64,000 bases of DNA from Mayamaea pseudoterrestris (taxonomy: Eukaryota). The position numbers were made by a program, and so were the translations under genes. The first letter of the stretch is position 1. Each line of letters opens with the position of its first letter. The notes beneath the pieces were generated by a model. That model worked only from the letters and a program-made list of their open reading frames with translations, had not been told where the DNA came from and searched no databases. Location of the stretch: positions 558,001-622,000 of the forward strand of contig BROI01000002.1 in NCBI GenBank assembly GCA_027923505.1. Reading direction: 5' to 3'. Shown piece by piece: positions 35,453 to 57,666 of the stretch.

Positions 35453-35572
35453 GGTGTATTTGCTTGCTTGTTGTAATGGTCTTGTTGGTGGTTTGCAGTT
35501 TGCAGCTCCTCGAAGTGGAAGGCCCACGCGATAACGACGAAATAACGGTCAATCGCTTTCTAGCGATGATCA

Positions 35573-35595
35573 TGACGTCATCTACAATGACGTCA
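35573..35595. promoter_or_regulatory. Paired perfect CRE/bZIP palindromes (TGACGTCA x2) in the divergent V-ATPase G / kinase promoter
   Basis: TGACGTCA at 35573 and 35588; duplicated at 46954 and 46969. Confidence 0.55.
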
Positions 35596-35889
35596 ATCCG
35601 GTACTGTGCGTCGCAGCGAAACTAATGAGTACTCTTCGGGTCATAGGTTTTAAAAAAATGCACGAAAAGTTCGATTCGATTCTTGCGAACGACCATGGCA
35701 AAAGCATTGGCCTTGCCTTGCGCACCTTTCTTTGTCTCGCTACGTATTAGGAGTCGCAACGCGACGTGCCAAAGTTGAACTCCCCATTCGTGTGTCTACT
35801 TAGTATCAGCAAATCTCGCTCACCTTGGCACCTCGCTCAGCTACACACATCACCCGCACGACGCCTCGTCTACACGAGTTGTGCCGACA

Positions 35890-37533: not shown

Positions 37534-37551
37534 CTGCTAAAACACCGCAGC

Positions 37552-38808
37552 TTACTCTTGAACATGGTGACTGCTGGTCTCACCGAGACGGCAGACTTCG
37601 CGCTCAATCTTTTGAACAAGCTCAGGCTTGGTTTCCCACGGCGACCGACTGTGATTCGACTCGTCCATACACTGCAGTAAAAGTACCGTCAAGCTATGAA
37701 TAGTCTCCAGACGCAGCCAGGGATCAATGCTACCGAGATTGACTTGCATTTGCTGCGAGTATGTTCGCCAAATGATGTCTGCCTGTGTTCGATTTGCGCA
37801 CACCTTTCGACCAAGCATTAGTAGTTCAAAGCGCGGGTCGGCAATGGCTGCTTCCTCCCAATCGAGAACGGATGCGACGATTGACTTCAAATTATTGCAT
37901 CCGTTGATTATAATTTTGCTGAATAGAATGTTTTGTGGCTGGCAATCCATGTGCACCAACGTTGGCGCCAGGGATTCTATCGAGGAACTATCGGTTGTGA
38001 GTTCCATTATGCTTCGATCCAGCTTCATTAATGCGTTTACTAATGTAACATCTGCACATTGACAAGTCTGTAGTTGCTTTAGCGCTTGCTTGTGTAGAAG
38101 CAGCATTGTTTGAAATGTATATATCGGCGGATATACATCCTCCGCGCCTCTGGGTCGTCTGTGAGGATTGTCGTTTTGAAGCCAGTCAATAGGCCTCTTC
38201 CTAAAGTAGCAATGTAATGGAATCACCACTTGATGCAATACAGTCAGTGCATAGTCTAACGCTTGATCAGCAGGAACCCGTCCCCATCGTGGATGTGTTT
38301 CATCAAATCCAAACTCTCTGCGGATGAACACCATGGATTCGCACCATGCATCGTCAAATGATTCGTCTTGAAACAATAGTGACTCCTTGCCAACATACTC
38401 AACCATCGCCCATGGGTGGCATGCATCGTTATCAAGTGATTCGTGTAGAATGTGAGGAATGTAGGGACGTCGCTGAGTATCCTTGCCATCGTTGAGTGCC
38501 AGTCGAGCGAGTCGGTATCCCATCAGTTCGTCTCGTGCAATTGCCTTCAGGTCGCTGCTGCCGCCGTTCCGATTCAAGTTCCACCATCGCGCAGATCCCT
38601 TCCAAATTCGGACAACAATTCTATTTTTACCTCTTTGCAATGCTTGCTTCCAGTCGCCATTGTCGCTCGACAATGCAATTGACTGCGGCAGCTGTAGAAT
38701 GAGCACCGTCTGCTGAGCCGATTTGGCCGTTTCAACGGAAATGAGTGGCTCTAGAAGCGACAGTTTCTTTTGAAGAAACGTTAGAGCCGATGAAGAGAGC
38801 TGGTCCAT
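37552..38808 (-). CDS. APH/choline-kinase-like phosphotransferase (copy 1)
   Basis: LVHMDCQPQNILF and VLDWEEAAIADPRFEL; start uncertain (MDQLSS chosen). Confidence 0.8.
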   Translation of the reverse strand: MDQLSSSALTFLQKKLSLLEPLISVETAKSAQQTVLILQLPQSIALSSDNGDWKQALQRGKNRIVVRIWKGSARWWNLNRNGGSSDLKAIARDELMGYRLARLALNDGKDTQRRPYIPHILHESLDNDACHPWAMVEYVGKESLLFQDESFDDAWCESMVFIRREFGFDETHPRWGRVPADQALDYALTVLHQVVIPLHCYFRKRPIDWLQNDNPHRRPRGAEDVYPPIYTFQTMLLLHKQALKQLQTCQCADVTLVNALMKLDRSIMELTTDSSSIESLAPTLVHMDCQPQNILFSKIIINGCNNLKSIVASVLDWEEAAIADPRFELLMLGRKVCANRTQADIIWRTYSQQMQVNLGSIDPWLRLETIHSLTVLLLQCMDESNHSRSPWETKPELVQKIEREVCRLGETSSHHVQE

Positions 38809-39186
38809 CTTTGTATACTTCTGCAGCCGGCCATGCATCAATGGTGCGCGATGGCAATAATGGACGATGAAAAACATCCGATGTCTCACCGGTGAAGTTG
38901 AGAACCAGTACGACGCTTCCACACGACTGCACGAAAGTCCGTTTCTGCGCATGAGCGATGGATTCCGTAACTAAAATACGAGCGATCTAATGCATCAAAG
39001 CTAGACACAAAACATGATCGCCCTATAGAAACGGTGCAAGTGGGATCGCTCAACGCTCGCCACGATTCCATGCTCCGAAACGTTTCGTTATCGATGGGGC
39101 GGCTCACAAATCGCGGTTGCCTGCCGATCCACTCACACACATCTCCACGCTGCGCGCTCCAAGACACACACACACACTAACATACC

Positions 39187-39618
39187 ATGAAGTTTGACAC
39201 CAAGACGCTCAAGCCCATGCCTGTCTCTCCGGAACACTGCTTCGTCCGTCCGAACAAGTTTGTTCCGCCAGTCGATCATGAAACCAAGGACGACGACGGC
39301 GACCAGGGCCGCCAGGTTTACTACGAGGCAACCATTGTCTACACGCCCGTCTACGCTTCGACTCGCATTCACCAGGATCAAGTCAGCAGTGGTCGCAAGA
39401 AGCTTTTGGAGGATTTGGACATGGAGAGTCTCAACCAAAAGCTGGAAGGCTTGTTTATTGGCGGCGGCGACGACGACAAGGAGGCAGGCGTCGTCAAGAA
39501 AAGGGAATCAAAGAAGGACAATGTCAAGACGGAAATGACCAAGAAGGAGGGACTCGGTCGATCCGCCAAGGCGGGACATGACAAGACGGCGATGCGCAGT
39601 CGACGCGCACTCAAGTGA
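39187..39618 (+). CDS. Small hypothetical protein (copy 1)
   Basis: 143-aa ORF with coding-like C/G third positions and a CA-rich 5' leader. Confidence 0.6.
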   Translation: MKFDTKTLKPMPVSPEHCFVRPNKFVPPVDHETKDDDGDQGRQVYYEATIVYTPVYASTRIHQDQVSSGRKKLLEDLDMESLNQKLEGLFIGGGDDDKEAGVVKKRESKKDNVKTEMTKKEGLGRSAKAGHDKTAMRSRRALK

Positions 39619-39949
39619 ATGATGTGAATGGATTCGGAAGGACGAAAATGAGGATTTATAGATGGTAGAACAAAAAGAGGCGGTACGACTCAGTAAGAAA
39701 TCGACAATTGTAACTACTCTGTGCGTATAGCTCTAGTTCGTCTGCATGATTAGTAGCAGTTGACTTGGAGATTGTCGGATAGCATTGGAGCTTCCCTCCT
39801 CACGACCAACGAGCGAACCACGTCTCGCGCGTCATAGCGCGCGCCGCGGCGCGCCACCAAAGAACATGAGCAAGACCGAGCAACGTCGCCCTACTTGCTT
39901 TCACAAAGTGCTGTCCTCCTCCCGTACTCCTTTCATAGAACTCTCCAGC

Positions 39950-42900
39950 ATGAGCTCCTCCTTGTCTTCTGTAGACAAGCATTCATTGTCAGTCAACGAT
40001 GACGACACGACTGCAAAGGCATCCGCTCCTTTGGACCAGCCGCTCAGCGCTTCTTCATCGCAGCAACCATCATCGACGGATCATTATCATTTAGATTTCA
40101 TCGCCAGCAGCCATGCCGTCAAAAGCTTGTTCTCCTTGGGAGTCATTGACGATCAAAGCATTAGCGTTGCCATTCACAACGTTGATGGAGCGCTCGTATT
40201 GGATCACGCGCATGTTGCCGCGGAAGGAGCCGTCGTTGAAGCAGCAGCAGCTCAAGGAATTAGCGACAGCAGCAGTCACGAAAATACTCGTTTGGGAGCC
40301 TTGGAGGCAGACAAGGAGCGACAAGTATCATTGTCGCAGGATATCATTGCTCTTCCTGCTGGACTGGGCGAGATGAAGGAGACGGAAGCGCTCGCGCTGA
40401 TTCTTGCGAATCCGCCGCAGAATTCCGTCTCAAACATCACCTCGCATGACAGTCATAGCGACAACAATTCCAAGCTCGGACTACCCGTACCTGACGATTA
40501 TATACAACGATTCTTGCCGCAGCAATCTCCCGAACCACGAGAATATTTGCCTTGGAAATTCAAGGACATTCAGTTGCTCATTGGCTCGAATGCGACCGTC
40601 TATCGAGCAAGCAGCAGCAGCACTACTGCGAATGCAGCTAACGTAGCGGAGCATTCGACAGCCATTACAGTTCGCATTGAACAAACGAGAGACCTGCAGT
40701 CTCTCTTGGAGCGATATGAACAAGACAAGCTGTTTGCGCTGCAAAACAAGCCTTCATATGCACAAGTGGCCGCAGCAAAGGCAATCAGACAGCGACAACA
40801 AATAAACAAGCCGCTCACCAGCGATTTGCATCAACTGGCCGACGATGAGCAAGGTCTTCAGTCTTGTATTGTGGCAGCTCCATCTTGTCCTGTAGGTGGA
40901 CTATTGTCGTCTCGAGGCGGCCTCATTTCATCGCCGCAGCACCACCAAGCGGACGCATCAACAAATCCTGCTTCGTCGCCAACTTCGCCCGTTTCCACCG
41001 TTTTGGACATTTATCTTGATAATATAATGGCTAATGTACCGCAGCTGGCATTGTGTTTACAGGACAAGGGTTTGATTCAGTCGGTGAAGCTGCTGTCGAC
41101 GGATGACATTCCATCGTCGCTGATGCATCCCGATACTCTCGAAACATCGACTCCATTTTCAATTGTTCACAAGGCCGACGGAAAGCAAGTTTTTAGCCCC
41201 GAAGTCATGGAGACGAATGCATCCATGTTGCTTCGATTCCTGCAAGCCAACTGCACCAAGAATAACACGACATATCTGCTACGACGGGAGCATGGCGAAA
41301 CAAACATTCAACTATACGATATATCCACCCTTTCCGGTCGAGGACAAAAGCGCTGGGTGTTTTGGCTCGCCATGATGTCTTATCGCTTTGCCAATCGTTT
41401 GCGCCACGTTGCCATGAACCACGCCGTCGACGATCCGGCCTTGAAGCGAGCTTGGCGTGCGCGGCAGCGAAGTTTGTTGCGAAACACGTTGGAGTTGCTG
41501 GAAAAGTTGACGGATATGGATGGTAATCAGCGCGAGAGTTTGGCAGCTGCGGTTCATGAGCATTTGGCGGATAGCATGCTGGGTCTGGAGGATAGTGAAG
41601 GGCCTGCTGGTTGCTTTGGTGAGGGCGACGAGGAAGCGCTTCCCTCGTCAGGCAAATCCGTACCTACATCGCCGACACCTTGTGTATCCATGATACAGCA
41701 GCCGTACGCTAACATCTCGGTTGATGCTTTGGGCAAGGCTCAGGATCATTTGGCGAAGGGCATCAAGGTACTTATGCCGGTTTTGGAAGCTGATGCGAAA
41801 CTGCATAACGCTAAGACTAAGAAGGGAGCTGTAGATGCAGAATTTCGCCGGCGTATTGAACCAGTCGCGACTCAGCTCTTTGCCTTGCACTACAAGTTTG
41901 TGAATGTGTCGCTTCGTCTTGCTGAAATTCATTTAAGTAATTACTTTTCGTCGAGCGCCATGCAGGCTTTGCGGACTTCCGCTCGGTGCATGGCAGATTC
42001 ACTATATCTGGTCCATCTTTTAGATCGAGACTCGGACAAGAGAGTATATGCCTGGATGCAAAGAATTCAGCTCCAGTATACATGGCTGTGGGAACACAGC
42101 GGCCACTTCGCGCGATCATTTGCAGCGGACGAACTATGGCGAGAGCGTGGCCATGCTTCTGGCGACGATGTAATCAGTGTACTTCAGGATGTTGACAATG
42201 CATTTCGCGAGCATGCATCACTAGATTTGAGCGATTCATTTATACGGAAGACTTTTATCGAGCCGGAGAATCCGCTTACAATGCAGTCGAATGGCGTCAT
42301 TAATCTTAATTCGTTAAATGGTATTGTCGACTTCTTTGCACCAATTGGGAAGCGGAAGGTTCAAAAAACACAACGCAACGCCTCCGACAGAGAAGTTGCT
42401 GAAAAAGTCTTGGCGAAGCGGAGGGTTATTGTCCGCGATCAAAGAAAAGTTTTGATCGCTGCATCCCTTGCTTACAGTCGATCAATCAAATCGTTTCGCG
42501 ATTTACTAGCAGAGGAAGCGTTTGACGACACACTCCCATCAGAGAATGATACCGCGTTGATAGCTTTGCTCGATCAGAGGCTTGGTGATTCTTGCAATGA
42601 GACTGGGAAGATTCTGTTGAATGAACTTAGACGACTCCTTCAGTCAGCGAGTGCTCGCCCCAACGATGCTGCGCCTACAGGAGCCGTCGAGTACATGCTC
42701 TCGTCCGCTCAGTTTTGGTTTTTCCAAGCCCTTGAAGTATTCGAACGTTGCAGAGATCTACGAAACTTGGCGTTGCTTCGTTGCAACCTCTGTCAGGCGT
42801 ACAAGCTTCAGGCTAATGCAGTTTTTTCGTCCACGACCCCGAAACCCCCGGACGGCCACACCCATGCTGATATCTGCTTGCAGGAGGCCATCCATCACCT

Positions 42901-43732
42901 TGAAGCTGCTCATGAGGCCCTGGGCGAGCGTGACCTGGATCCGAAAACATGGAACTTTGTCAGCGAGGAGATGGCTGCAACGTTTCTGGTACTTGGGGTT
43001 CGACGGCGCCAATCCTTTATTGGATCTGGATCGGTGCCTGTCCTTATGCAGGCTTTACGACTTTCTCCGGGAAAGGAGCAGTCGATTGTTGAGCCAATAG
43101 AGAGAGCGCGACAAATCTATGAGCAGCTTGGGAACCATCATCAGGCTGCAGCAGCGCACTACCAGCTCGCGTTGTACTTTAGTAAAATATGGACCTGCCA
43201 ACTTAACGAGGTTAAGACGCGAGAAAAGCTCACGCTCGCGTTCCAGCATTTTAATGCTGCGTATGGGTACTTTTTAAAAGCAATTCGTGGGAATGAGATT
43301 ACATTTTGTTTGCTGTGCATCGACTCATCGGGATTGTACGCGGCCGTTCCAGGGCTAGAGAGCACTTGCAAGGCACTTCTACGTTGTCTAGACACTGCTG
43401 ATGCGCTTTCTAAAAACGTTGTAGAAACGAAATTGAAAGATGTGCAAGGCCGTGCCGACTGGTTTAGGCAAATGGATGTAATTACCACGGCTATTGACGA
43501 ACGCGTATTCAAAGCGTTGCGCAGTTTGGTGAAAATTGAAAATGAAGCTGCTGGTGACGGTAACGATCGGTACAAGTCATTGTATCGAATAGCCTTGCAA
43601 GCCAAAATGCGCCCCGCTCCTTCTGAAGTTTACTGCGGGGACGAATTTATTGACAGTGTTGCTAACCGACTCCACGCAATGCACTCCCTGCTCAAGGAAA
43701 CTGCTACTCATTACAAAGAAAAATGCGTTTGA
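39950..43732 (+). CDS. EDRF1-like protein with TPR-like helical C-terminus (copy 1)
   Basis: LDIYLDNIMANVPQLALC...DDIP...FSPEV...LRFLQANCT...IQLYDI resembles the EDRF1 N-terminal core; start may be 39866. Confidence 0.75.
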   Translation: MSSSLSSVDKHSLSVNDDDTTAKASAPLDQPLSASSSQQPSSTDHYHLDFIASSHAVKSLFSLGVIDDQSISVAIHNVDGALVLDHAHVAAEGAVVEAAAAQGISDSSSHENTRLGALEADKERQVSLSQDIIALPAGLGEMKETEALALILANPPQNSVSNITSHDSHSDNNSKLGLPVPDDYIQRFLPQQSPEPREYLPWKFKDIQLLIGSNATVYRASSSSTTANAANVAEHSTAITVRIEQTRDLQSLLERYEQDKLFALQNKPSYAQVAAAKAIRQRQQINKPLTSDLHQLADDEQGLQSCIVAAPSCPVGGLLSSRGGLISSPQHHQADASTNPASSPTSPVSTVLDIYLDNIMANVPQLALCLQDKGLIQSVKLLSTDDIPSSLMHPDTLETSTPFSIVHKADGKQVFSPEVMETNASMLLRFLQANCTKNNTTYLLRREHGETNIQLYDISTLSGRGQKRWVFWLAMMSYRFANRLRHVAMNHAVDDPALKRAWRARQRSLLRNTLELLEKLTDMDGNQRESLAAAVHEHLADSMLGLEDSEGPAGCFGEGDEEALPSSGKSVPTSPTPCVSMIQQPYANISVDALGKAQDHLAKGIKVLMPVLEADAKLHNAKTKKGAVDAEFRRRIEPVATQLFALHYKFVNVSLRLAEIHLSNYFSSSAMQALRTSARCMADSLYLVHLLDRDSDKRVYAWMQRIQLQYTWLWEHSGHFARSFAADELWRERGHASGDDVISVLQDVDNAFREHASLDLSDSFIRKTFIEPENPLTMQSNGVINLNSLNGIVDFFAPIGKRKVQKTQRNASDREVAEKVLAKRRVIVRDQRKVLIAASLAYSRSIKSFRDLLAEEAFDDTLPSENDTALIALLDQRLGDSCNETGKILLNELRRLLQSASARPNDAAPTGAVEYMLSSAQFWFFQALEVFERCRDLRNLALLRCNLCQAYKLQANAVFSSTTPKPPDGHTHADICLQEAIHHLEAAHEALGERDLDPKTWNFVSEEMAATFLVLGVRRRQSFIGSGSVPVLMQALRLSPGKEQSIVEPIERARQIYEQLGNHHQAAAAHYQLALYFSKIWTCQLNEVKTREKLTLAFQHFNAAYGYFLKAIRGNEITFCLLCIDSSGLYAAVPGLESTCKALLRCLDTADALSKNVVETKLKDVQGRADWFRQMDVITTAIDERVFKALRSLVKIENEAAGDGNDRYKSLYRIALQAKMRPAPSEVYCGDEFIDSVANRLHAMHSLLKETATHYKEKCV

Positions 43733-43766
43733 AAATTGTGATAATTTAATATTTCATTTACTTGTG

Positions 43767-45279
43767 TCACTCCTCCGGAAACAAAGGTAGCCTGCTCTTT
43801 TCGATACCAGATTCGACAAAACCCTGCTCCTTGAGCATAGTGATAGTATCTCGCAGTCGCATTCCTTCATCATGATTCATTCGTTGTAGCGACACTGTAA
43901 TATGACTAGCCAATGCCTTCAAAATTTGAACATCATTGTTCGTAAAACCACCCTGCGTCTTGGAAATTGGATCAACGGCATCAAGATTACCCTTGCGCTT
44001 ATCCGTCTTGTTGATTGCTTGAATGACGGCAATCGCTCGACCTTGTGAATCCAATACTGGCACGCACACCATGTTGCGAATCTGCTGGTCATGCGGAAGC
44101 GACTCGTTTTGCTTGCCGGCTTCTGCCGCAAAGTCTGGTTCGTTTCGTACGTCATAAAAGTTAAAGCACTCGCCTGTCAATACCGCGCGCGACGCAATGT
44201 TGCGGCCAAGTGGTATAAAGCTTCCAGACTTGAGCGACTTTTTGGATGTTTCGTCGTACTTGGCGTATAAATACTTTCCATCTGGCGTTGGAATGGGAGT
44301 GCCCAGCTTGTCGTCCTTTTGCACGACGAGAAAGAGCGACGTCCGCTGCGCCCCAATCAAACTACCCGCCTCATTAATAACGTCGTTGAATATTTCATCC
44401 AAGTGTGCTTCTCGTTTCCGTGCTTGAATCTTGTTCGAGTCGATGAATAAAAGTGGAAACATGCCTATTAATGAATGAAAAGCCAGAGACAAGTAAGCTT
44501 GACGCTCGCAAAAATAGAAAACAGACTACACCATAACATTTGTACGTTACCAATCAAACAGCCAATGGTCATTCCAATGGCGCAACCAAACTGGTTGGCA
44601 AACCTCACCGACCGCAGCTGTCGCTGGGCCGTGGTGAGATTGGGCTTTGGAAGGTTCACGTGCTTGGCCAAAAAGTCTTCCACGACGGTTCCAAACATGA
44701 CTCCGGCAACGTCACTGACAATGTTTCCCTGGAGCATCAATAATAGATAAATATTGTTGAGTAAACCTGTTTCATTCCGTCCACATTCTCGTCACTCATT
44801 ATACGCACCAGCGCTGCCGCGCACATTGTCGAAATGCCCAGCAGTACACCAAAGGACGTGTCAATGGCATCACCCGCAATGATCAACAAGGCATTATCCA
44901 TGATTCCAAAGGCAATAAAGGGAATGCACGTGGCAATGGCAACCGCTCTCAAGTCTTGCTTGGTTGGTTCAGGAATTATTAATTGTGCGTCATTGCCTGA
45001 TTTGGAGGCTGCTTCGCGTACGTGGCGAATGGCACCATGTAGCTGCTGGCGGCCTGACGGTGACAAGTGATTGACTAGTGATTCGAAACCAAGTCCTTGC
45101 TCGCTAAGTTCAGTCAATTGTCGCGATAGATTGGAAGCATTGACTGGTTTATTGCTCGATGAGGCTGCTGCTTCTGCTGCATCGGACAGTGAGCGAGTGC
45201 TTGGCTTACAGTGTAACCTTTGCGTCACTGAAATTATTGGTCGACATATTTTCTGCGACCGTATCATATTAATCTGCAT
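43767..45279 (-). CDS. TMEM65-domain + GAF-domain fusion, mitochondrial-type presequence (copy 1); introns 44729-44808 and 44465-44550
   Basis: Spliced IPFIAFGIMDNALLIIAGDAID...STMCAAAL|GNIVSD...GCLIG|MFPLLF (TMEM65), then AQRTSLFLV...RNMVCVPV...IAVIQAINK...FTNNDVQIL (GAF, NKFD-type). Confidence 0.85.
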
Positions 45280-45507
45280 TGGATTCTATATACCAGAGAT
45301 TAATGGGCCGCAGTAGCAGCAGGGGCAAAAGATTGGACGGACGAAAGGTATGATGGTGTCATGGTCGATTGAATGGATTGTCACGCATCGTAGCGGTACT
45401 CAGTCTTGTCTTGCGTTTGTTCTTTGGCAGTGTGCGTACGACATTCTCACATATCATCATCATTCCACAAAGTCTTCCGTACGACCTTAACAGAAATCAT
45501 CAACAGC

Positions 45508-46285
45508 ATGGGTTCCTTCATGTTTGCCCTTTACTGCATAGGGAGTTTTCTGCTCATGGTGATTTTGGCGTGTGTCATGTGCGGCTGTCCGATACTGGCG
45601 TTCGTACTCGGCGCACCTTTCGAACAAACCGTGAGTGTCAATGAACGACAACGGATGGAACAAAGTAATTTGGCCGAATGGATCATTCGTCTCATGCGAG
45701 ATCCAGATACTTTGGAGGATCGTCGTCGTCGTAGGCAGACGTCAACCACGGATGTTGAGCAACCGCAGTCTCTACAAGAAAAGACTGACGAGTACTCGAG
45801 TAAGACGCTGCAGCTGCTGGAATCTAGACGAATGGTACGTGACAAGACTTATAAGATTCATGTGTTTTGCGTATATGGAATCATCTGGGTTCAGAGGTCT
45901 GACATTGTTGCTTGTATATGCGCAGACACTACGAGAAAAACATTTCGTCCACTATCCCACGACGGAAGCCGTCACAGTCGAGGTGAGCTTCGGTGACGAC
46001 CCAGCGACCAGCAGCAACGACAGTACCATGGTTCGCGTTCCGGCTGCTGGCTCGCATGTAAATTGTGACAATGATCAACCATATCGACTGGCGGAGGCAA
46101 CCTGCGCCATATGCTTGATCGCCTACGAGACTGGCTCGCAGGTTGGTTGGTCATCCAACATCGCGTGTGAGCATGTCTTTCATTACGATTGCTTCAAATT
46201 GTGGTTGGCGCGGCCCGAAGGAAAGTCTTGTCCATGTTGCCGACGGGAGTTTCTTGTCGGCGAAACTGTTGATTTGAAAGGGTGA
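45508..46285 (+). CDS. Transmembrane RING-H2 E3 ligase (ATL-like, copy 1); intron 45835-45925
   Basis: N-terminal TM, spliced in frame to CAICL...CEHVFHYDCFKLWL...CPCCR. Confidence 0.85.
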
Positions 46286-47270
46286 AAGTCAAAAGGAAGA
46301 CCTTTTTGGCCACTGCCAATCTTTGTCACACCAATGGTGACCAAGGCACGTAGCGAAAGTGATGCAGGCAGAAGCAAGCTTGATATTTGGATGGCTGTAC
46401 TCTCTATGAAAAAACATTCAACTGCAGCCAAACGTGCTAGAAAAACTGCTTGGAAACGAGGCCAAAAGACCGCCTGTCGGCAAGTTTAAGAGCATGAGCT
46501 AGGAGTCTGTAGCAAGTCACACTTGAAAGCGCATGTTCCAATAGTCTGTAGCAAGTCGCTACCATGCTTCCAGATGAAACGCGACATTCATGGGGGACTC
46601 GGAACGGCTCATTCATGGCCCGAGAAAGGCGACAGCATCTCGATCTTAATTGTCCCCCAAACAATCGTTTTATTTATTAAAATATGTATGTCACTACAAC
46701 GAAGTGATTAAAGACCTTATCTTTTTTTCGCTAGGGTCTATTAAACACATGAACATATTCGCAGGGTGGGGAGGTGGTATCGGTAGGATCAATGGTACCA
46801 CAAAGCCTGCAAACAAACACCTCCAGTAGACAATATAGAAATTGACACAGGCCCTTCAAAGCAAACCATTTTGATGGGTTGATGCCAACGATTCTCGTCT
46901 ATACGGAAGCGATAACGACGAAATAACGGTCAATCGCTTTCTAGCGATGATCATGACGTCATCTACAATGACGTCAATCCGGTACTGTGCGTCGCAGCGA
47001 AACTAATGAGTACTCTTCGGGTCATAGGTTTTAAAAAAATGCACGAAAAGTTCGATTCGATTCTTGCGAACGACCATGGCAAAAGCATTGGCCTTGCCTT
47101 GCGCACCTTTCTTTGTCTCGCTACGTATTAGGAGTCGCAACGCGACGTGCCAAAGTTGAACTCCCCATTCGTGTGTCTACTTAGTATCAGCAAATCTCGC
47201 TCACCTTGGCACCTCGCTCAGCTACACACATCACCCGCACGACGCCTCGTCTACACGAGTTGTGCCGACA

Positions 47271-48914
47271 ATGATTCATCCAAAGCGGACAAATTTGTCC
47301 ACCGACGACAAGTCATCCGACCAAGAAGAGCCGAACCATCAAATTCAGAATAGATCCGCTTCGCCCAGGATCCAAAGACGTTCCATTTATAGCATGATGG
47401 TCGGACGTCGTCGCGTTCCTGACAAGAAGATGAATTGTTGCACCAAGCCTCGCAAATGGACACTGTCATCCATTCTTGTATTGATGTTGGTTGTGGCATC
47501 AATCAGCACACTCTTAATCAATTCAGTATCAGTATTGATATTTTCGAAACAGATTATTGGCAATGACGCTCATCTACCGCTATCTATGGAAACAGTACGT
47601 CGACGAAAGGTGCATAACATTGCTTACAAAACCACTGCACAAAGCTCGCGAATGGTTTACTTGGAATCGTCGTTGCAATTTTATGAAGCCAAACAAGGTC
47701 GATTCATTGCCACCATGTTTCCTGTGGAACCAGTCGCCAACATGACCAACTCATCCAACTTTTTGAATGTATCCGACGCAATCGATTTTGAACTGAACAT
47801 GACTGCTCCCGACACAATCTTGTCAAGGGACGAAGTGACAGCCGACAACACACAAGACCAATTTAGCTACTTGGATCGCTGCCTGCCAAAAGCTGACTGG
47901 CAGACCGCTAGCTTTATCAATTGCAACGCCTTTCACGAATTAAACATGGCGCACTCGTCACTGGAGAATCGTCGACGCGGCGAGGAGGAGCAACTATCAG
48001 TGCTTGGTGAAGGATGGTTTCGCACCGCCTGGCGACTGTATGCGCGCAACCAAACGACCGTGCTGAAAACGTTGCGGATCGAACGAGATTTTTTGCCAGA
48101 ATACTATGAGTTGCATCGTAGAGATGCAGTTGCCATGGAGCGATTGACGTGGTCGCCCTTTGTCGTTAACGTGTTTGGCTACTGTGGCAACTCGGCAATC
48201 AACGAGATTGCGGATTTTCCCTATCGCGATGTGAACGATTTGGAGCACTTTGATCGAAAGATGAGGTACCGCGAGCGTCATCCGCAGATTCAACGCATCA
48301 AGCTGCAATTGGCGGCAAGCATTGCGCAAGGCGTGGCTGACATTCATTCCATCGATGGGCCAGAAGTGGGTGTCAGCATGGTGCACTACGACTTGAATCC
48401 ACGCAACATTGCAATCTTTGCGCAGGGACGCCCAAAGATCAACGATTTTAATATTGCAGAGTTTCTACGCTATGATCCTGTCAATAATCGCACTTGTGGG
48501 TTTCCCAATCGCATGCGGCAGCCATGGTGGAGAGCCCCGGAGGAAGTCAATCTAACAGCCAACGTGGAGGTGAATGAAAAGACTGACATTTATTCACTTG
48601 GTGCTATTCTGTTTCATATTTTAACTACGCATTCTCCCCGCGGCAAAATGAAAAAGGAAATGATGGAGGATGTTCGGGCTGATGTGGTCCGAGGAGTTGC
48701 TCCAGTCTTGCCGCCGCCCTTTGACAACATGACGGATTCAGTGACAATGGCGTTCAAGAAGGCCATGGACCGATGCTTCGTGGTAGACCACAAGGAGCGC
48801 GCCACGGCCGATGAGATTGTTGACATTTTGTTTCAGGCGCTCATGAAGGTTTTGGGTGACGGTAGCAAGAAGTCAAAACGTCGATCAATTAAGCATACCG
48901 ATCGCACGAGATAG
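47271..48914 (+). CDS. Signal-anchored protein kinase (copy 2)
   Basis: Identical translation to copy 1. Confidence 0.83.
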   Translation: MIHPKRTNLSTDDKSSDQEEPNHQIQNRSASPRIQRRSIYSMMVGRRRVPDKKMNCCTKPRKWTLSSILVLMLVVASISTLLINSVSVLIFSKQIIGNDAHLPLSMETVRRRKVHNIAYKTTAQSSRMVYLESSLQFYEAKQGRFIATMFPVEPVANMTNSSNFLNVSDAIDFELNMTAPDTILSRDEVTADNTQDQFSYLDRCLPKADWQTASFINCNAFHELNMAHSSLENRRRGEEEQLSVLGEGWFRTAWRLYARNQTTVLKTLRIERDFLPEYYELHRRDAVAMERLTWSPFVVNVFGYCGNSAINEIADFPYRDVNDLEHFDRKMRYRERHPQIQRIKLQLAASIAQGVADIHSIDGPEVGVSMVHYDLNPRNIAIFAQGRPKINDFNIAEFLRYDPVNNRTCGFPNRMRQPWWRAPEEVNLTANVEVNEKTDIYSLGAILFHILTTHSPRGKMKKEMMEDVRADVVRGVAPVLPPPFDNMTDSVTMAFKKAMDRCFVVDHKERATADEIVDILFQALMKVLGDGSKKSKRRSIKHTDRTR

Positions 48915-48932
48915 CTGCTAAAACACCGCAGC

Positions 48933-50189
48933 TTACTCTTGAACATGGTGACTGCTGGTCTCACCGAGACGGCAGACTTCGCGCTCAATCTTTTGAACAA
49001 GCTCAGGCTTGGTTTCCCACGGCGACCGACTGTGATTCGACTCGTCCATACACTGCAGTAAAAGTACCGTCAAGCTATGAATAGTCTCCAGACGCAGCCA
49101 GGGATCAATGCTACCGAGATTGACTTGCATTTGCTGCGAGTATGTTCGCCAAATGATGTCTGCCTGTGTTCGATTTGCGCACACCTTTCGACCAAGCATT
49201 AGTAGTTCAAAGCGCGGGTCGGCAATGGCTGCTTCCTCCCAATCGAGAACGGATGCGACGATTGACTTCAAATTATTGCATCCGTTGATTATAATTTTGC
49301 TGAATAGAATGTTTTGTGGCTGGCAATCCATGTGCACCAACGTTGGCGCCAGGGATTCTATCGAGGAACTATCGGTTGTGAGTTCCATTATGCTTCGATC
49401 CAGCTTCATTAATGCGTTTACTAATGTAACATCTGCACATTGACAAGTCTGTAGTTGCTTTAGCGCTTGCTTGTGTAGAAGCAGCATTGTTTGAAATGTA
49501 TATATCGGCGGATATACATCCTCCGCGCCTCTGGGTCGTCTGTGAGGATTGTCGTTTTGAAGCCAGTCAATAGGCCTCTTCCTAAAGTAGCAATGTAATG
49601 GAATCACCACTTGATGCAATACAGTCAGTGCATAGTCTAACGCTTGATCAGCAGGAACCCGTCCCCATCGTGGATGTGTTTCATCAAATCCAAACTCTCT
49701 GCGGATGAACACCATGGATTCGCACCATGCATCGTCAAATGATTCGTCTTGAAACAATAGTGACTCCTTGCCAACATACTCAACCATCGCCCATGGGTGG
49801 CATGCATCGTTATCAAGTGATTCGTGTAGAATGTGAGGAATGTAGGGACGTCGCTGAGTATCCTTGCCATCGTTGAGTGCCAGTCGAGCGAGTCGGTATC
49901 CCATCAGTTCGTCTCGTGCAATTGCCTTCAGGTCGCTGCTGCCGCCGTGCCGATTCAAGTTCCACCATCGCGCAGATCCCTTCCAAATTCGGACAACAAT
50001 TCTATTTTTACCTCTTTGCAATGCTTGCTTCCAGTCGCCATTGTCGCTCGACAATGCAATTGACTGCGGCAGCTGTAGAATGAGCACCGTCTGCTGAGCC
50101 GATTTGGCCGTTTCAACGGAAATGAGTGGCTCTAGAAGCGACAGTTTCTTTTGAAGAAACGTTAGAGCCGATGAAGAGAGCTGGTCCAT
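48933..50189 (-). CDS. APH-like phosphotransferase (copy 2; N-to-H variant)
   Basis: As copy 1 except LNRHGG vs LNRNGG. Confidence 0.78.
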   Translation of the reverse strand: MDQLSSSALTFLQKKLSLLEPLISVETAKSAQQTVLILQLPQSIALSSDNGDWKQALQRGKNRIVVRIWKGSARWWNLNRHGGSSDLKAIARDELMGYRLARLALNDGKDTQRRPYIPHILHESLDNDACHPWAMVEYVGKESLLFQDESFDDAWCESMVFIRREFGFDETHPRWGRVPADQALDYALTVLHQVVIPLHCYFRKRPIDWLQNDNPHRRPRGAEDVYPPIYTFQTMLLLHKQALKQLQTCQCADVTLVNALMKLDRSIMELTTDSSSIESLAPTLVHMDCQPQNILFSKIIINGCNNLKSIVASVLDWEEAAIADPRFELLMLGRKVCANRTQADIIWRTYSQQMQVNLGSIDPWLRLETIHSLTVLLLQCMDESNHSRSPWETKPELVQKIEREVCRLGETSSHHVQE

Positions 50190-50567
50190 CTTTGTATACT
50201 TCTGCAGCCGGCCATGCATCAATGGTGCGCGATGGCAATAATGGACGATGAAAAACATCCGATGTCTCACCGGTGAAGTTGAGAACCAGTACGACGCTTC
50301 CACACGACTGCACGAAAGTCCGTTTCTGCGCATGAGCGATGGATTCCGTAACTAAAATACGAGCGATCTAATGCATCAAAGCTAGACACAAAACATGATC
50401 GCCCTATAGAAACGGTGCAAGTGGGATCGCTCAACGCTCGCCACGATTCCATGCTCCGAAACGTTTCGTTATCGATGGGGCGGCTCACAAATCGCGGTTG
50501 CCTGCCGATCCACTCACACACATCTCCACGCTGCGCGCTCCAAGACACACACACACACTAACATACC

Positions 50568-50999
50568 ATGAAGTTTGACACCAAGACGCTCAAGCCCATG
50601 CCTGTCTCTCCGGAACACTGCTTCGTCCGTCCGAACAAGTTTGTTCCGCCAGTCGATCATGAAACCAAGGACGACGACGGCGACCAGGGCCGCCAGGTTT
50701 ACTACGAGGCAACCATTGTCTACACGCCCGTCTACGCTTCGACTCGCATTCACCAGGATCAAGTCAGCAGTGGTCGCAAGAAGCTTTTGGAGGATTTGGA
50801 CATGGAGAGTCTCAACCAAAAGCTGGAAGGCTTGTTTATTGGCGGCGGCGACGACGACAAGGAGGCAGGCGTCGTCAAGAAAAGGGAATCAAAGAAGGAC
50901 AATGTCAAGACGGAAATGACCAAGAAGGAGGGACTCGGTCGATCCGCCAAGGCGGGACATGACAAGACGGCGATGCGCAGTCGACGCGCACTCAAGTGA
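50568..50999 (+). CDS. Small hypothetical protein (copy 2)
   Basis: Identical translation to copy 1. Confidence 0.58.
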   Translation: MKFDTKTLKPMPVSPEHCFVRPNKFVPPVDHETKDDDGDQGRQVYYEATIVYTPVYASTRIHQDQVSSGRKKLLEDLDMESLNQKLEGLFIGGGDDDKEAGVVKKRESKKDNVKTEMTKKEGLGRSAKAGHDKTAMRSRRALK

Positions 51000-51330
51000 A
51001 TGATGTGAATGGATTCGGAAGGACGAAAATGAGGATTTATAGATGGTAGAACAAAAAGAGGCGGTACGACTCAGTAAGAAATCGACAATTGTAACTACTC
51101 TGTGCGTATAGCTCTAGTTCGTCTGCATGATTAGTAGCAGTTGACTTGGAGATTGTCGGATAGCATTGGAGCTTCCCTCCTCACGACCAACGAGCGAACC
51201 ACGTCTCGCGCGTCATAGCGCGCGCCGCGGCGCGCCACCAAAGAACATGAGCAAGACCGAGCAACGTCGCCCTACTTGCTTTCACAAAGTGCTGTCCTCC
51301 TCCCGTACTCCTTTCATAGAACTCTCCAGC

Positions 51331-54300
51331 ATGAGCTCCTCCTTGTCTTCTGTAGACAAGCATTCATTGTCAGTCAACGATGACGACACGACTGCAAAGG
51401 CATCCGCTCCTTTGGACCAGCCGCTCAGCGCTTCTTCATCGCAGCAACCATCATCGACGGATCATTATCATTTAGATTTCATCGCCAGCAGCCATGCCGT
51501 CAAAAGCTTGTTCTCCTTGGGAGTCATTGACGATCAAAGCATTAGCGTTGCCATTCACAACGTTGATGGAGCGCTCGTATTGGATCACGCGCATGTTGCC
51601 GCGGAAGGAGCCGTCGTTGAAGCAGCAGCAGCTCAAGGAATTAGCGACAGCAGCAGTCACGAAAATACTCGTTTGGGAGCCTTGGAGGCAGACAAGGAGC
51701 GACAAGTATCATTGTCGCAGGATATCATTGCTCTTCCTGCTGGACTGGGCGAGATGAAGGAGACGGAAGCGCTCGCGCTGATTCTTGCGAATCCGCCGCA
51801 GAATTCCGTCTCAAACATCACCTCGCATGACAGTCATAGCGACAACAATTCCAAGCTCGGACTACCCGTACCTGACGATTATATACAACGATTCTTGCCG
51901 CAGCAATCTCCCGAACCACGAGAATATTTGCCTTGGAAATTCAAGGACATTCAGTTGCTCATTGGCTCGAATGCGACCGTCTATCGAGCAAGCAGCAGCA
52001 GCACTACTGCGAATGCAGCTAACGTAGCGGAGCATTCGACAGCCATTACAGTTCGCATTGAACAAACGAGAGACCTGCAGTCTCTCTTGGAGCGATATGA
52101 ACAAGACAAGCTGTTTGCGCTGCAAAACAAGCCTTCATATGCACAAGTGGCCGCAGCAAAGGCAATCAGACAGCGACAACAAATAAACAAGCCGCTCACC
52201 AGCGATTTGCATCAACTGGCCGACGATGAGCAAGGTCTTCAGTCTTGTATTGTGGCAGCTCCATCTTGTCCTGTAGGTGGACTATTGTCGTCTCGAGGCG
52301 GCCTCATTTCATCGCCGCAGCACCACCAAGCGGACGCATCAACAAATCCTGCTTCGTCGCCAACTTCGCCCGTTTCCACCGTTTTGGACATTTATCTTGA
52401 TAATATAATGGCTAATGTACCGCAGCTGGCATTGTGTTTACAGGACAAGGGTTTGATTCAGTCGGTGAAGCTGCTGTCGACGGATGACATTCCATCGTCG
52501 CTGATGCATCCCGATACTCTCGAAACATCGACTCCATTTTCAATTGTTCACAAGGCCGACGGAAAGCAAGTTTTTAGCCCCGAAGTCATGGAGACGAATG
52601 CATCCATGTTGCTTCGATTCCTGCAAGCCAACTGCACCAAGAATAACACGACATATCTGCTACGACGGGAGCATGGCGAAACAAACATTCAACTATACGA
52701 TATATCCACCCTTTCCGGTCGAGGACAAAAGCGCTGGGTGTTTTGGCTCGCCATGATGTCTTATCGCTTTGCCAATCGTTTGCGCCACGTTGCCATGAAC
52801 CACGCCGTCGACGATCCGGCCTTGAAGCGAGCTTGGCGTGCGCGGCAGCGAAGTTTGTTGCGAAACACGTTGGAGTTGCTGGAAAAGTTGACGGATATGG
52901 ATGGTAATCAGCGCGAGAGTTTGGCAGCTGCGGTTCATGAGCATTTGGCGGATAGCATGCTGGGTCTGGAGGATAGTGAAGGGCCTGCTGGTTGCTTTGG
53001 TGAGGGCGACGAGGAAGCGCTTCCCTCGTCAGGCAAATCCGTACCTACATCGCCGACACCTTGTGTATCCATGATACAGCAGCCGTACGCTAACATCTCG
53101 GTTGATGCTTTGGGCAAGGCTCAGGATCATTTGGCGAAGGGCATCAAGGTACTTATGCCGGTTTTGGAAGCTGATGCGAAACTGCATAACGCTAAGACTA
53201 AGAAGGGAGCTGTAGATGCAGAATTTCGCCGGCGTATTGAACCAGTCGCGACTCAGCTCTTTGCCTTGCACTACAAGTTTGTGAATGTGTCGCTTCGTCT
53301 TGCTGAAATTCATTTAAGTAATTACTTTTCGTCGAGCGCCATGCAGGCTTTGCGGACTTCCGCTCGGTGCATGGCAGATTCACTATATCTGGTCCATCTT
53401 TTAGATCGAGACTCGGACAAGAGAGTATATGCCTGGATGCAAAGAATTCAGCTCCAGTATACATGGCTGTGGGAACACAGCGGCCACTTCGCGCGATCAT
53501 TTGCAGCGGACGAACTATGGCGAGAGCGTGGCCATGCTTCTGGCGACGATGTAATCAGTGTACTTCAGGATGTTGACAATGCATTTCGCGAGCATGCATC
53601 ACTAGATTTGAGCGATTCATTTATACGGAAGACTTTTATCGAGCCGGAGAATCCGCTTACAATGCAGTCGAATGGCGTCATTAATCTTAATTCGTTAAAT
53701 GGTATTGTCGACTTCTTTGCACCAATTGGGAAGCGGAAGGTTCAAAAAACACAACGCAACGCCTCCGACAGAGAAGTTGCTGAAAAAGTCTTGGCGAAGC
53801 GGAGGGTTATTGTCCGCGATCAAAGAAAAGTTTTGATCGCTGCATCCCTTGCTTACAGTCGATCAATCAAATCGTTTCGCGATTTACTAGCAGAGGAAGC
53901 GTTTGACGACACACTCCCATCAGAGAATGATACCGCGTTGATAGCTTTGCTCGATCAGAGGCTTGGTGATTCTTGCAATGAGACTGGGAAGATTCTGTTG
54001 AATGAACTTAGACGACTCCTTCAGTCAGCGAGTGCTCGCCCCAACGATGCTGCGCCTACAGGAGCCGTCGAGTACATGCTCTCGTCCGCTCAGTTTTGGT
54101 TTTTCCAAGCCCTTGAAGTATTCGAACGTTGCAGAGATCTACGAAACTTGGCGTTGCTTCGTTGCAACCTCTGTCAGGCGTACAAGCTTCAGGCTAATGC
54201 AGTTTTTTCGTCCACGACCCCGAAACCCCCGGACGGCCACACCCATGCTGATATCTGCTTGCAGGAGGCCATCCATCACCTTGAAGCTGCTCATGAGGCC

Positions 54301-55113: not shown

Positions 55114-55147
55114 AAATTGTGATAATTTAATATTTCATTTACTTGTG

Positions 55148-56660
55148 TCACTCCTCCGGAAACAAAGGTAGCCTGCTCTTTTCGATACCAGATTCGACAA
55201 AACCCTGCTCCTTGAGCATAGTGATAGTATCTCGCAGTCGCATTCCTTCATCATGATTCATTCGTTGTAGCGACACTGTAATATGACTAGCCAATGCCTT
55301 CAAAATTTGAACATCATTGTTCGTAAAACCACCCTGCGTCTTGGAAATTGGATCAACGGCATCAAGATTACCCTTGCGCTTATCCGTCTTGTTGATTGCT
55401 TGAATGACGGCAATCGCTCGACCTTGTGAATCCAATACTGGCACGCACACCATGTTGCGAATCTGCTGGTCATGCGGAAGCGACTCGTTTTGCTTGCCGG
55501 CTTCTGCCGCAAAGTCTGGTTCGTTTCGTACGTCATAAAAGTTAAAGCACTCGCCTGTCAATACCGCGCGCGACGCAATGTTGCGGCCAAGTGGTATAAA
55601 GCTTCCAGACTTGAGCGACTTTTTGGATGTTTCGTCGTACTTGGCGTATAAATACTTTCCATCTGGCGTTGGAATGGGAGTGCCCAGCTTGTCGTCCTTT
55701 TGCACGACGAGAAAGAGCGACGTCCGCTGCGCCCCAATCAAACTACCCGCCTCATTAATAACGTCGTTGAATATTTCATCCAAGTGTGCTTCTCGTTTCC
55801 GTGCTTGAATCTTGTTCGAGTCGATGAATAAAAGTGGAAACATGCCTATTAATGAATGAAAAGCCAGAGACAAGTAAGCTTGACGCTCGCAAAAATAGAA
55901 AACAGACTACACCATAACATTTGTACGTTACCAATCAAACAGCCAATGGTCATTCCAATGGCGCAACCAAACTGGTTGGCAAACCTCACCGACCGCAGCT
56001 GTCGCTGGGCCGTGGTGAGATTGGGCTTTGGAAGGTTCACGTGCTTGGCCAAAAAGTCTTCCACGACGGTTCCAAACATGACTCCGGCAACGTCACTGAC
56101 AATGTTTCCCTGGAGCATCAATAATAGATAAATATTGTTGAGTAAACCTGTTTCATTCCGTCCACATTCTCGTCACTCATTATACGCACCAGCGCTGCCG
56201 CGCACATTGTCGAAATGCCCAGCAGTACACCAAAGGACGTGTCAATGGCATCACCCGCAATGATCAACAAGGCATTATCCATGATTCCAAAGGCAATAAA
56301 GGGAATGCACGTGGCAATGGCAACCGCTCTCAAGTCTTGCTTGGTTGGTTCAGGAATTATTAATTGTGCGTCATTGCCTGATTTGGAGGCTGCTTCGCGT
56401 ACGTGGCGAATGGCACCATGTAGCTGCTGGCGGCCTGACGGTGACAAGTGATTGACTAGTGATTCGAAACCAAGTCCTTGCTCGCTAAGTTCAGTCAATT
56501 GTCGCGATAGATTGGAAGCATTGACTGGTTTATTGCTCGATGAGGCTGCTGCTTCTGCTGCATCGGACAGTGAGCGAGTGCTTGGCTTACAGTGTAACCT
56601 TTGCGTCACTGAAATTATTGGTCGACATATTTTCTGCGACCGTATCATATTAATCTGCAT
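55148..56660 (-). CDS. TMEM65-GAF fusion (copy 2)
   Basis: Identical exon translations to copy 1. Confidence 0.83.
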
Positions 56661-56888
56661 TGGATTCTATATACCAGAGATTAATGGGCCGCAGTAGCAG
56701 CAGGGGCAAAAGATTGGACGGACGAAAGGTATGATGGTGTCATGGTCGATTGAATGGATTGTCACGCATCGTAGCGGTACTCAGTCTTGTCTTGCGTTTG
56801 TTCTTTGGCAGTGTGCGTACGACATTCTCACATATCATCATCATTCCACAAAGTCTTCCGTACGACCTTAACAGAAATCATCAACAGC

Positions 56889-57666
56889 ATGGGTTCCTTC
56901 ATGTTTGCCCTTTACTGCATAGGGAGTTTTCTGCTCATGGTGATTTTGGCGTGTGTCATGTGCGGCTGTCCGATACTGGCGTTCGTACTCGGCGCACCTT
57001 TCGAACAAACCGTGAGTGTCAATGAACGACAACGGATGGAACAAAGTAATTTGGCCGAATGGATCATTCGTCTCATGCGAGATCCAGATACTTTGGAGGA
57101 TCGTCGTCGTCGTAGGCAGACGTCAACCACGGATGTTGAGCAACCGCAGTCTCTACAAGAAAAGACTGACGAGTACTCGAGTAAGACGCTGCAGCTGCTG
57201 GAATCTAGACGAATGGTACGTGACAAGACTTATAAGATTCATGTGTTTTGCGTATATGGAATCATCTGGGTTCAGAGGTCTGACATTGTTGCTTGTATAT
57301 GCGCAGACACTACGAGAAAAACATTTCGTCCACTATCCCACGACGGAAGCCGTCACAGTCGAGGTGAGCTTCGGTGACGACCCAGCGACCAGCAGCAACG
57401 ACAGTACCATGGTTCGCGTTCCGGCTGCTGGCTCGCATGTAAATTGTGACAATGATCAACCATATCGACTGGCGGAGGCAACCTGCGCCATATGCTTGAT
57501 CGCCTACGAGACTGGCTCGCAGGTTGGTTGGTCATCCAACATCGCGTGTGAGCATGTCTTTCATTACGATTGCTTCAAATTGTGGTTGGCGCGGCCCGAA
57601 GGAAAGTCTTGTCCATGTTGCCGACGGGAGTTTCTTGTCGGCGAAACTGTTGATTTGAAAGGGTGA
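56889..57666 (+). CDS. Transmembrane RING-H2 E3 ligase (copy 2)
   Basis: Identical exon translations to copy 1. Confidence 0.83.

Follow-up and report, generated by a model that had tools for sequence, protein, structure and literature searches.

The link between animal TMEM65 and mitochondrial Na+/Ca2+ exchange dates only from 2023–2026; the protein has been proposed as the mitochondrial Na+/Ca2+ exchanger, and its role, as the exchanger itself or as a helper of NCLX, is disputed. MitoCarta and other mitochondrial sets list the human protein, which co-localises with SDHA. When intact mitoplasts with a C-terminally tagged form are treated with protease the tag disappears, and Y77 lies in the matrix, so that the N-terminus is on the matrix side and the C-terminus on the intermembrane-space side (PMC12830682). 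According to Vetralla et al. (PMC12830682), human TMEM65 activity requires D132, D167, G170 and E178, G140L and Q195E are close to wild type, and E144Q is more active; a glycine zipper is named as a TMEM65 feature in the same paper. A second set of relevant systems comprises the cyclic-nucleotide-binding GAF domains of the Anabaena adenylyl cyclases CyaB1 and CyaB2 and of PDE2, PDE5, PDE6 and PDE10. As stated in a passage of PMC11977230, cyclic nucleotide binding shifts the terminal helices, and in the PDE2 and PDE5 GAFs the NKFDE motif makes no nucleotide contact, yet both binding and the relay of the signal to the terminal helix depend on it. Here we describe a gene of the raphid pennate diatom Mayamaea pseudoterrestris, referred to below as TMEM65-GAF, that joins a membrane core of the first kind to a sensor domain of the second in a single 448-residue protein. 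It lies in a 64,000-nucleotide stretch (the window) of contig BROI01000002.1 (GenBank assembly GCA_027923505.1, positions 558,001–622,000); all positions below are those of the window, and the features are collected in Table 1.

An earlier note on this DNA, made from the letters and their open reading frames, had proposed that three fragments splice through two GT-AG introns into one protein. Scripted joining of the reverse-strand frames gave that model as a frame of 448 codons with 0 internal stops, and the spliced product was letter for letter the NCBI entry 'hypothetical protein MPSEU_000131700 [Mayamaea pseudoterrestris]' (P0001). The exons have a G+C content of 47–53% and the introns of 36–38%, and retention of either intron soon stops the frame in the open reading frame list. 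For the splice junctions, which the note had suggested checking by RNA-seq, we used contigs of four public runs (X1–X4) over region 43500–45600; these come from one study with the library kind unrecorded, and among the sequencing runs covering the stretch none was recorded as RNA. In three of the four runs (X2, X3 and X4), contigs lack precisely the 86 and 80 bases of the two predicted introns, with CT..AC ends on the + strand. One of them, X4 record 23 (576 nt), spans both joints and so contains sequence of all three exons, and X3 record 16 has 673 nt of exon 3 (the GAF exon) joined to exon 2, while the X1 contigs hold unspliced gene sequence and cover intergenic DNA as well. The simplest explanation of the spliced contigs is an origin from transcripts.

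Both domain calls of the earlier note were borne out on the whole product: PF10507 matched residues 117–225 with 145 bits (cut-off 25, E 9.7e-43) over profile positions 2–109 of 109, and PF01590 matched residues 237–409 with 57.9 bits (cut-off 22.4, E 2e-15), where PF13185 also scored (1.5e-9). The failure of profile hidden Markov models (HMMs) to support either domain, which the note had named as grounds for abandoning the fusion, was thus not what we found. Exon by exon, residues 117–157 of exon 1 matched TMEM65 profile positions 2–42 (E 2.3e-15), exon 2 matched positions 43–100 (E 2.8e-15) and exon 3 alone matched GAF (E 4e-16), so that positions 42 and 43 abut across intron 1; intron 2 cuts the TMEM65 domain just ahead of its last nine profile positions. 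As TMEM65 residues 218–225 and the GAF are encoded by the same exon in one frame, the two domains are not two genes mis-joined, and we consider it nearly certain that the architecture is real. We regard as extremely improbable the explanation that annotation joined two genes by error, or that the GAF is a free methionine-R-sulfoxide reductase (fRMsr). The unspliced form in X1 could be taken to favour the first part, which is refuted by the content of exon 3 and by the spliced contigs, exons 2 and 3 being joined in three runs; the second part is weighed with the fold matches below. The contigs of the four runs also revealed two sequence variants of the gene (43802–45058) with 36 coding differences, 32 of them synonymous; the four non-synonymous ones (E438K, V311I, L132F and R85H) are conservative, and there is a 3-nt in-frame deletion at codon 100 (44980). 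These variants look like alleles or strains, and the TMEM65 and GAF domains are both under purifying selection.

The taxonomic search proposed in the earlier note revealed a fusion that is widespread in protists, not a one-off. The GAF exon has 58 matches longer than 405 aa; all 58 contain PF10507 together with PF01590, and these, minus P0035, form the 57-relative alignment (A1) on which the conservation counts below are based. A profile search with A1 identified 277 proteins at E ≤ 1e-5, and all 120 of the 120 listed carry both families. An exhaustive search of 1.84 billion representatives gave 6573 matches at E ≤ 1e-3 and 1026 at 1e-30; by our own domain HMMs the 119 new representatives listed were core-GAF (61), core-GAF-GAF (20, including some in which an insert divides a single GAF), core only (29) and other (9). 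Among diatoms the fusion occurs in Mayamaea, Seminavis, Amphora, Fistulifera, Cylindrotheca, Nitzschia and Fragilariopsis, and it is conserved across raphid diatoms; for Phaeodactylum the NCBI protein is a 134-aa partial, and other members of its 90%-identity cluster are fused. Further afield it was found in the brown alga Choristocarpus and in Phaeothamnion (both partial sequences), the apicomplexan Cardiosporidium cionae, the euglenozoan Diplonema papillatum and Perkinsus chesapeaki (1862 aa), and transcriptome-derived relatives (MMETSP 'type:complete') carry both domains, which also counts against a two-gene artefact. ESM Atlas clusters with both families were commonest in Chlorophyta, Bacillariophyta and Apicomplexa, which we take as a lead and not as a test.

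Several of these relatives are longer. Pfam searches of six fused relatives identified TMEM65-GAF-GAF-EF-hand in Diplonema and TMEM65-GAF-GAF-C2 in three environmental or transcriptome proteins, one of them with an added PAS domain. In the extended protist forms (Diplonema, environmental and Perkinsus; P0286, P0312, P0310, P0330 and P0342) a GAF directly follows the TMEM65 core, colinear with the diatom protein in single profile alignments, but they add a second GAF and Ca2+-binding or PAS domains that the diatom protein lacks. The recurrence of Ca2+-binding domain types (EF-hand, C2) behind the core fits a Ca2+-linked, regulated function. In the 1862-aa Perkinsus protein, Ion_trans also matched weakly (23.3 bits, under its cut-off of 25). 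Sources name relatives variously as 'tRNA-specific adenosine deaminase 1', 'GAF sensor-containing diguanylate cyclase', 'Dual 3prime' and 'methionine-R-sulfoxide reductase with GAF domain', and none of these names was supported by any domain found in the relatives. The domain pair itself is already visible in annotation, as 'Transmembrane protein 65/GAF domain'. Our literature searches, which covered titles and abstract starts and had subscription journals and supplements outside their range, identified no paper on a TMEM65-GAF fusion, in agreement with the earlier note, and we conclude that the fusion is real, conserved and uncharacterised.

The membrane core resembles that of animal TMEM65. 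It is 51% identical over 124 residues to TMEM65 of the sea anemone Exaiptasia diaphana, and its structure model has helices at 107–147, 151–181 and 196–223 (the last being TM3, the third transmembrane helix) with hydropathy peaks at ~118–153 and 213–217, i.e., the three transmembrane helices and glycine zipper that characterise TMEM65. The zipper, GxxxGxxxGxxxG in TM3, is formed by G205, G209, G213 and G217, each invariant in the 57 relatives. Also invariant are D137, D140, N129, N159, S162, D163, G166 and E174, and D128 is kept in at least 90%. We mapped the human activity residues by the motif context of the published primers (F-L-D-N-A.. and V-S-D-L-A-G) plus a constant offset of 4: human D132, D167, G170 and E178 become D128, D163, G166 and E174, the last by the offset alone, and all four are kept in the diatom protein. 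The same columns are conserved in one animal TMEM65, that of Exaiptasia. The diatom protein shares with its animal counterparts a full-length PF10507 domain, the four activity residues and the TM3 zipper, and it resembles them in its basic N-terminus and in loop charges compatible with their topology. The two differ in what follows TM3: animal TMEM65 ends ~10–40 residues later in an acidic tail, whereas in the diatom protein there is a 170-residue GAF, with a conserved C-terminal helix and an L-F-P motif behind it.

The GAF domain is nearest, in sequence and in fold, to the cyclic-nucleotide GAFs of CyaB2 and of PDE2, PDE5, PDE6 and PDE10. Its best PDB sequence match was the CyaB2 tandem GAF 1ykd (8e-14), followed by PDE5, PDE10A and PDE2A (12 matches at E ≤ 1), and PDB matches to the family profile were again led by 1ykd (5e-21) and PDE5 (4e-19). 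In the structure-prediction check suggested by the earlier note, Foldseek ranks 1–13 were taken by PDE2A, CyaB2, PDE10A, PDE5A and PDE6, with a Foldseek probability of 1.00 to 1mc0, 1ykd, 2zmf and 3lfv. The N-K..F...D motif that the note had read from the letters is made up of N368, K369, F390 and D394, kept in 56, 52, 57 and 57 of the 57 aligned relatives. The CyaB and PDE GAFs (1ykd, 1mc0, 3lfv, 2zmf) are the best sequence and fold matches, and the diatom GAF shares with them N-K-F-D and a terminal helix linking GAF to effector. The diatom GAF differs in being single and not tandem, in having V as the fifth motif residue, in purine contacts that are not conserved, and in its position C-terminal to an effector that is a putative membrane transporter, not a cyclase or phosphodiesterase. 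Behind the GAF is a conserved helix (D422, T423, I424, L427 and G431, each in at least 90% of relatives), then an extreme C-terminal motif in which L444, F445 and P446 are kept in at least 90%, and ..PLFPE.-type tails recur among relatives.

The fRMsr explanation can be judged from these same searches. Some relatives bear the name methionine-R-sulfoxide reductase in their sources, and fRMsr structures appear among the fold matches, at ranks 26 (4mmn), 40 and 43 (1f5m), but there was no fRMsr chain among the 12 PDB sequence matches at E ≤ 1 and no family was matched in NCBIfam. The fRMsr identity was therefore rejected, as the likeness is one of fold and not of sequence kinship.

For the location of the protein, the N-terminal 43 residues hold 7 R/K, 2 D/E and 10 S/T, with the first acidic residue at 33, and most relatives listed likewise begin with basic N-termini poor in acidic residues; behind this segment, residues 48–93 form three helices (the N-domain) in the structure model. 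Import into diatom plastids requires a signal peptide, and a hydrophobic signal-peptide core was absent from the first 60 aa, where the top 19-residue hydropathy was 0.3. By composition, then, the N-terminus fits a mitochondrial presequence and argues against a plastid signal peptide. A GAF-controlled cation pathway in some other membrane (plastid envelope, endoplasmic reticulum or plasma membrane) seems to us very unlikely: in its favour are the presequence call, made by composition only, and two older papers that, as cited in PMC12830682, put animal TMEM65 at the cardiac sarcolemma, while the missing signal-peptide core, the similar N-termini of most relatives and the mitochondrial placement of human TMEM65 (PMC12830682) speak against it. 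Returning to the mitochondrial reading, loop 1 (135–143) has a net charge of -2 (family mean -1.95) and loop 2 (167–199) of +3 (family mean +1.63), and these charges fit the orientation of human TMEM65. Together with the topology of the human protein, these charges predict a GAF on the intermembrane-space side and not in the matrix. The intermembrane space is open to cytosolic small molecules.

A possible arrangement of the core was suggested by two-copy structure predictions of residues 100–448, which scored 0.54 against 0.00 for the best control and passed the dimer mark of the method, with contact agreement between runs of at least 69% and partner pLDDT (predicted local distance difference test) of 63 or more. 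Of solved homodimers 21 of 30 attain this mark, against 0 of 23 solved single chains; the figures for eukaryotes are 17 of 29 and 0 of 30, respectively. Since the PDB holds no solved TMEM65 relative (20 of 20 family-profile matches were GAF chains), it is unlikely that the predictor passed by reproducing a known complex. Confident contacts are confined to residues 121–224 and include the in-register pairs 151-151, 155-155 and 159-159, with D128 and N129 against N159' of the partner; on this model the TMEM65 core is probably a parallel homodimer with invariant polar residues at its axis. TM3, part of the predicted interface, almost merges with the first GAF helix: only two residues separate helix 196–223 from a helix (226–253) that leads into the GAF sheet. 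Therefore, a ligand-driven helix movement like that described for the PDE5 and CyaB2 GAFs could reach the ion pathway.

Based on these results we propose a sensor-regulated mitochondrial cation exchanger as the best reading of the protein, and hold it at about even chances. The 448-residue protein would sit in the inner mitochondrial membrane with its three-helix TMEM65 core paired as a parallel homodimer; D128, N129, D137, D140, N159 and D163 would meet at the dimer axis and would perform Na+-dependent Ca2+ efflux or drive it, in line with the proposal for animal TMEM65. A small ligand binding to the GAF in the intermembrane space would move the terminal helix and, through it, TM3, and so tune the exchanger, with a cyclic nucleotide as the favoured ligand and Na+ as the second candidate. 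We infer the mitochondrial location, topology, dimer, transported ions, ligand and coupling in this scheme. The ligand-regulated mitochondrial transporter or regulator of the earlier note is the most plausible function because the four activity residues are kept, the GAF is of the PDE/CyaB type and relatives add Ca2+-binding domains; where the note does not hold securely is in cyclic nucleotide binding, as set out below. Taken part by part, TMEM65-type cation handling in mitochondria is likely, regulation by a GAF ligand is somewhat favoured, and cAMP or cGMP as that ligand is somewhat less likely than not. In mitochondrial Ca2+ uptake the calcium uniporter is gated by MICU1 and MICU2, which are separate EF-hand subunits. 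The likeness is one of analogy without homology, in that an intermembrane-space sensor would control a mitochondrial Ca2+ pathway in both cases, but the diatom sensor is a GAF and is fused to the candidate efflux protein.

Several observations weigh against this scheme. For the core, one group sees TMEM65 as a regulator of NCLX and not as the exchanger itself, according to a passage in PMC10592617. The dimer is a prediction made without a family alignment at a modest pLDDT of 64–65, and on eukaryotes without an older solved relative the mark was reached by only 1 of 7. A small point is that the segment after TM3 has a mean net charge of +1.25, a poor fit to the intermembrane-space side, and the library kind is unrecorded for the runs with spliced TMEM65-GAF contigs. 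In the GAF, the fifth NKFDE position is V395, with V in 52 and E in 4 of the 57 relatives. The cAMP contacts of CyaB2 GAF-B, given as R291, T293, I308, T309, D356 and N359 in a passage of PMC4411481, map by HMMER alignment to R257, S259, I274, P275, E337 and H341, and across the family these positions are poorly kept: position 257 is R in only 29 of 57, position 259 is C in 29 and S in 16, position 274 is V, M or I in 35 and R or H in 12, and the equivalents of D356 and N359 fall in a variable, partly gapped loop. Cyclic nucleotide binding is not secure because these purine-contact positions are not conserved among orthologues. Nearly invariant instead are P301, G303, R304, I306, S308, R309, T313 and E325-P326-D327.

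This pattern bears directly on a rival with the same core and location, in which the GAF senses something other than a cyclic nucleotide, most attractively Na+, or else a redox or haem signal or another metabolite of the intermembrane space. We think this unlikely, although the unconserved purine contacts and the near-invariance of R304, S308, R309 and T313 both speak for it, Na+ is one of the two ions handled by the proposed exchanger, and a haem-binding GAF (2vzw) appears at Foldseek rank 49. That some GAFs bind Na+ is stated in one sentence of PMC4751278. Against the rival, the nearest sequence and fold relatives are all cyclic-nucleotide-binding GAFs and N-K-F-D is kept. The work on Na+-sensing GAFs reportedly concerns CyaB1 and PDE2-type GAFs, and in it Na+ is said to have modulated the nucleotide-bound GAF and not to have replaced the nucleotide, which also counts against Na+ as the ligand here. 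We keep a cyclic nucleotide as the favoured ligand of the sensor-regulated exchanger, with the reservation expressed above.

Forms of the core that lack a GAF helped to place the fusion. We sorted 93 short core matches by the junction after TM3: 25 were fragments without the TM3 end, 11 ran into the start of a GAF, 20 had the I-D junction typical of fused forms followed by an early stop (several reading like an unspliced intron), 33 had an F-F junction and no GAF, and 4 were other. The Mayamaea name was absent from these 93, a weak argument against a GAF-less paralogue in this diatom that covers listed matches only, since any longer stand-alone protein would come after the 120 listed. Members of the F-F group come from, among others, Cyclotella (3 species), Stephanodiscus, Thalassiosira and nematodes. 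The stand-alone TMEM65 proteins of the Thalassiosirales (Cyclotella, Stephanodiscus and Thalassiosira) have a membrane core 56–63% identical to that of the fused protein; they differ from it in lacking the GAF and in continuing from the F-F junction into a short acidic or ~50-residue coiled-coil-like tail. The coiled-coil-like tail is itself conserved and ends in a W-D/H-K-G-Y-like motif (P0163–P0165, P0172–P0174, P0179 and P0184–P0187). In a maximum-likelihood tree of the core (32 rows and 117 columns, a short alignment with an arbitrary midpoint root), the Thalassiosirales group (99/100) was nested in a clade of fused diatom proteins (88/96), the animal TMEM65 clade had support of 97/94, and fused forms were located on both sides of the midpoint root. 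This suggests that the GAF was lost in Thalassiosirales and possibly in animals.

That Thalassiosirales kept the core and swapped the GAF for a coiled-coil or acidic tail could also mean that the GAF binds no small ligand, and is a structural, dimerisation or docking module that replaces the poly-acidic tail of animals, for example by holding a partner in the intermembrane space. Other points agree with this: the pocket positions vary, the conserved post-GAF helix and C-terminal L-F-P look like docking elements, and deletion of the human acidic tail merely lowers activity (PMC12830682). We nonetheless judge it quite unlikely, as N-K-F-D, tied to ligand binding and signal transfer in PDE GAFs, is almost invariant, and the stacking of a second GAF, EF-hand, C2 and PAS behind the core of relatives is a pattern of regulatory input; in addition, no confident contact of the predicted dimer touches the GAF.

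Table 1. Features of the TMEM65-GAF gene and its surroundings, in positions of the window (+, plus strand; -, minus strand)
Feature	Position	Strand	Description
TMEM65-GAF gene, whole	43767..45279	-	three exons, two GT..AG introns
Exon 1	44809..45279	-	471 nt, residues 1-157: presequence-like N-terminus, helical N-domain, TMEM65 start
Intron 1	44729..44808	-	80 nt, GTGCGT..CCAG, phase 0
Exon 2	44551..44728	-	178 nt, residues 158-216 + 1 nt: TM2, matrix loop, most of TM3
Intron 2	44465..44550	-	86 nt, GTAACG..ATAG, phase 1
Exon 3	43767..44464	-	residues 217-448 and TGA stop: TMEM65 end, linker helix, GAF, conserved C-terminal tail
Candidate mitochondrial presequence, residues 1-43	45151..45279	-	basic, Ser/Thr-rich; pLDDT < 50
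TMEM65 domain, residues 117-225	44439..44931	-	PF10507; interrupted by both introns; D128, D163, G166, E174; glycine zipper G205/G209/G213/G217
GAF domain, residues 237-409	43887..44405	-	PDE/CyaB type; N368-K369 44012-44007, F390 43946-43944, D394 43934-43932
Extreme C-terminal motif, residues 442-448	43770..43790	-	L-P-L-F-P-E-E; L444, F445, P446 at least 90% kept
Second, identical TMEM65-GAF copy	55148..56660	-	exons 56660-56190, 56109-55932, 55845-55148; tblastn matches repeat at offset 11381
EDRF1-like gene	39764-43732	+	intron-free open reading frame, 1322 aa; EDRF1 N-terminal and EDRF1-type TPR matches; convergent
RING-H2 gene	45394-46285	+	divergent; hydrophobic N-terminal open reading frame to GTGAGT near 45632; RING-H2 in other frame 45635-46285

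The gene is present twice in the window, as part of a head-to-tail tandem duplication of two blocks of 11,381 bp each (35528–46908 and 46909–58289) that align without a gap and are 99.991% identical; their sole mismatch (38568 T / 49949 G) is outside TMEM65-GAF. The block carries the EDRF1-like, TMEM65-GAF and RING-H2 genes, each therefore found in two copies. As the copies are far more alike than the contig variants (36 differences in 1.35 kb), the 11.4-kb duplication is either a very recent event or an assembly artefact. Two arrays of a 347-bp satellite follow the duplicated block, at 58561–60501 (5.7 copies, 91% matches) and 61565–64000 (6.9 copies, 82%). With only 34 bp between the stop codons of the EDRF1-like (43732) and TMEM65-GAF genes, the 3' untranslated regions of the two probably overlap. 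On the other side, 45394–46285 is probably one spliced gene for a membrane-anchored RING E3 ligase. Neither the EDRF1-like nor the RING-H2 neighbour has an obvious functional tie to TMEM65-GAF.

This analysis corrects misleading family names ('tRNA-specific adenosine deaminase 1', 'diguanylate cyclase' and 'methionine-R-sulfoxide reductase') that relatives of the protein carry. A natural and widely conserved fusion of the TMEM65 core to a sensor offers independent comparative support for a role of the core in regulated, Ca2+-linked transport, and it provides an experimental handle on the regulation of TMEM65-type Ca2+ efflux and on the coupling of algal signalling to mitochondrial calcium. We further speculate, while holding it doubtful as a whole, that GAF-fused TMEM65 is an old and widespread eukaryotic state of which the bare animal form is a stripped-down version, and that in diatoms, brown algae, alveolates, diplonemids and green algae Ca2+ release would be gated from the intermembrane-space side by cAMP/cGMP or Na+ on the GAF, with EF-hand or C2 feedback in some lineages. 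If this were true, the protein would be a sensor and exchanger in one, without known counterpart in animal mitochondria. The fusion suggests that many protists may switch mitochondrial Ca2+ release directly by a chemical signal.

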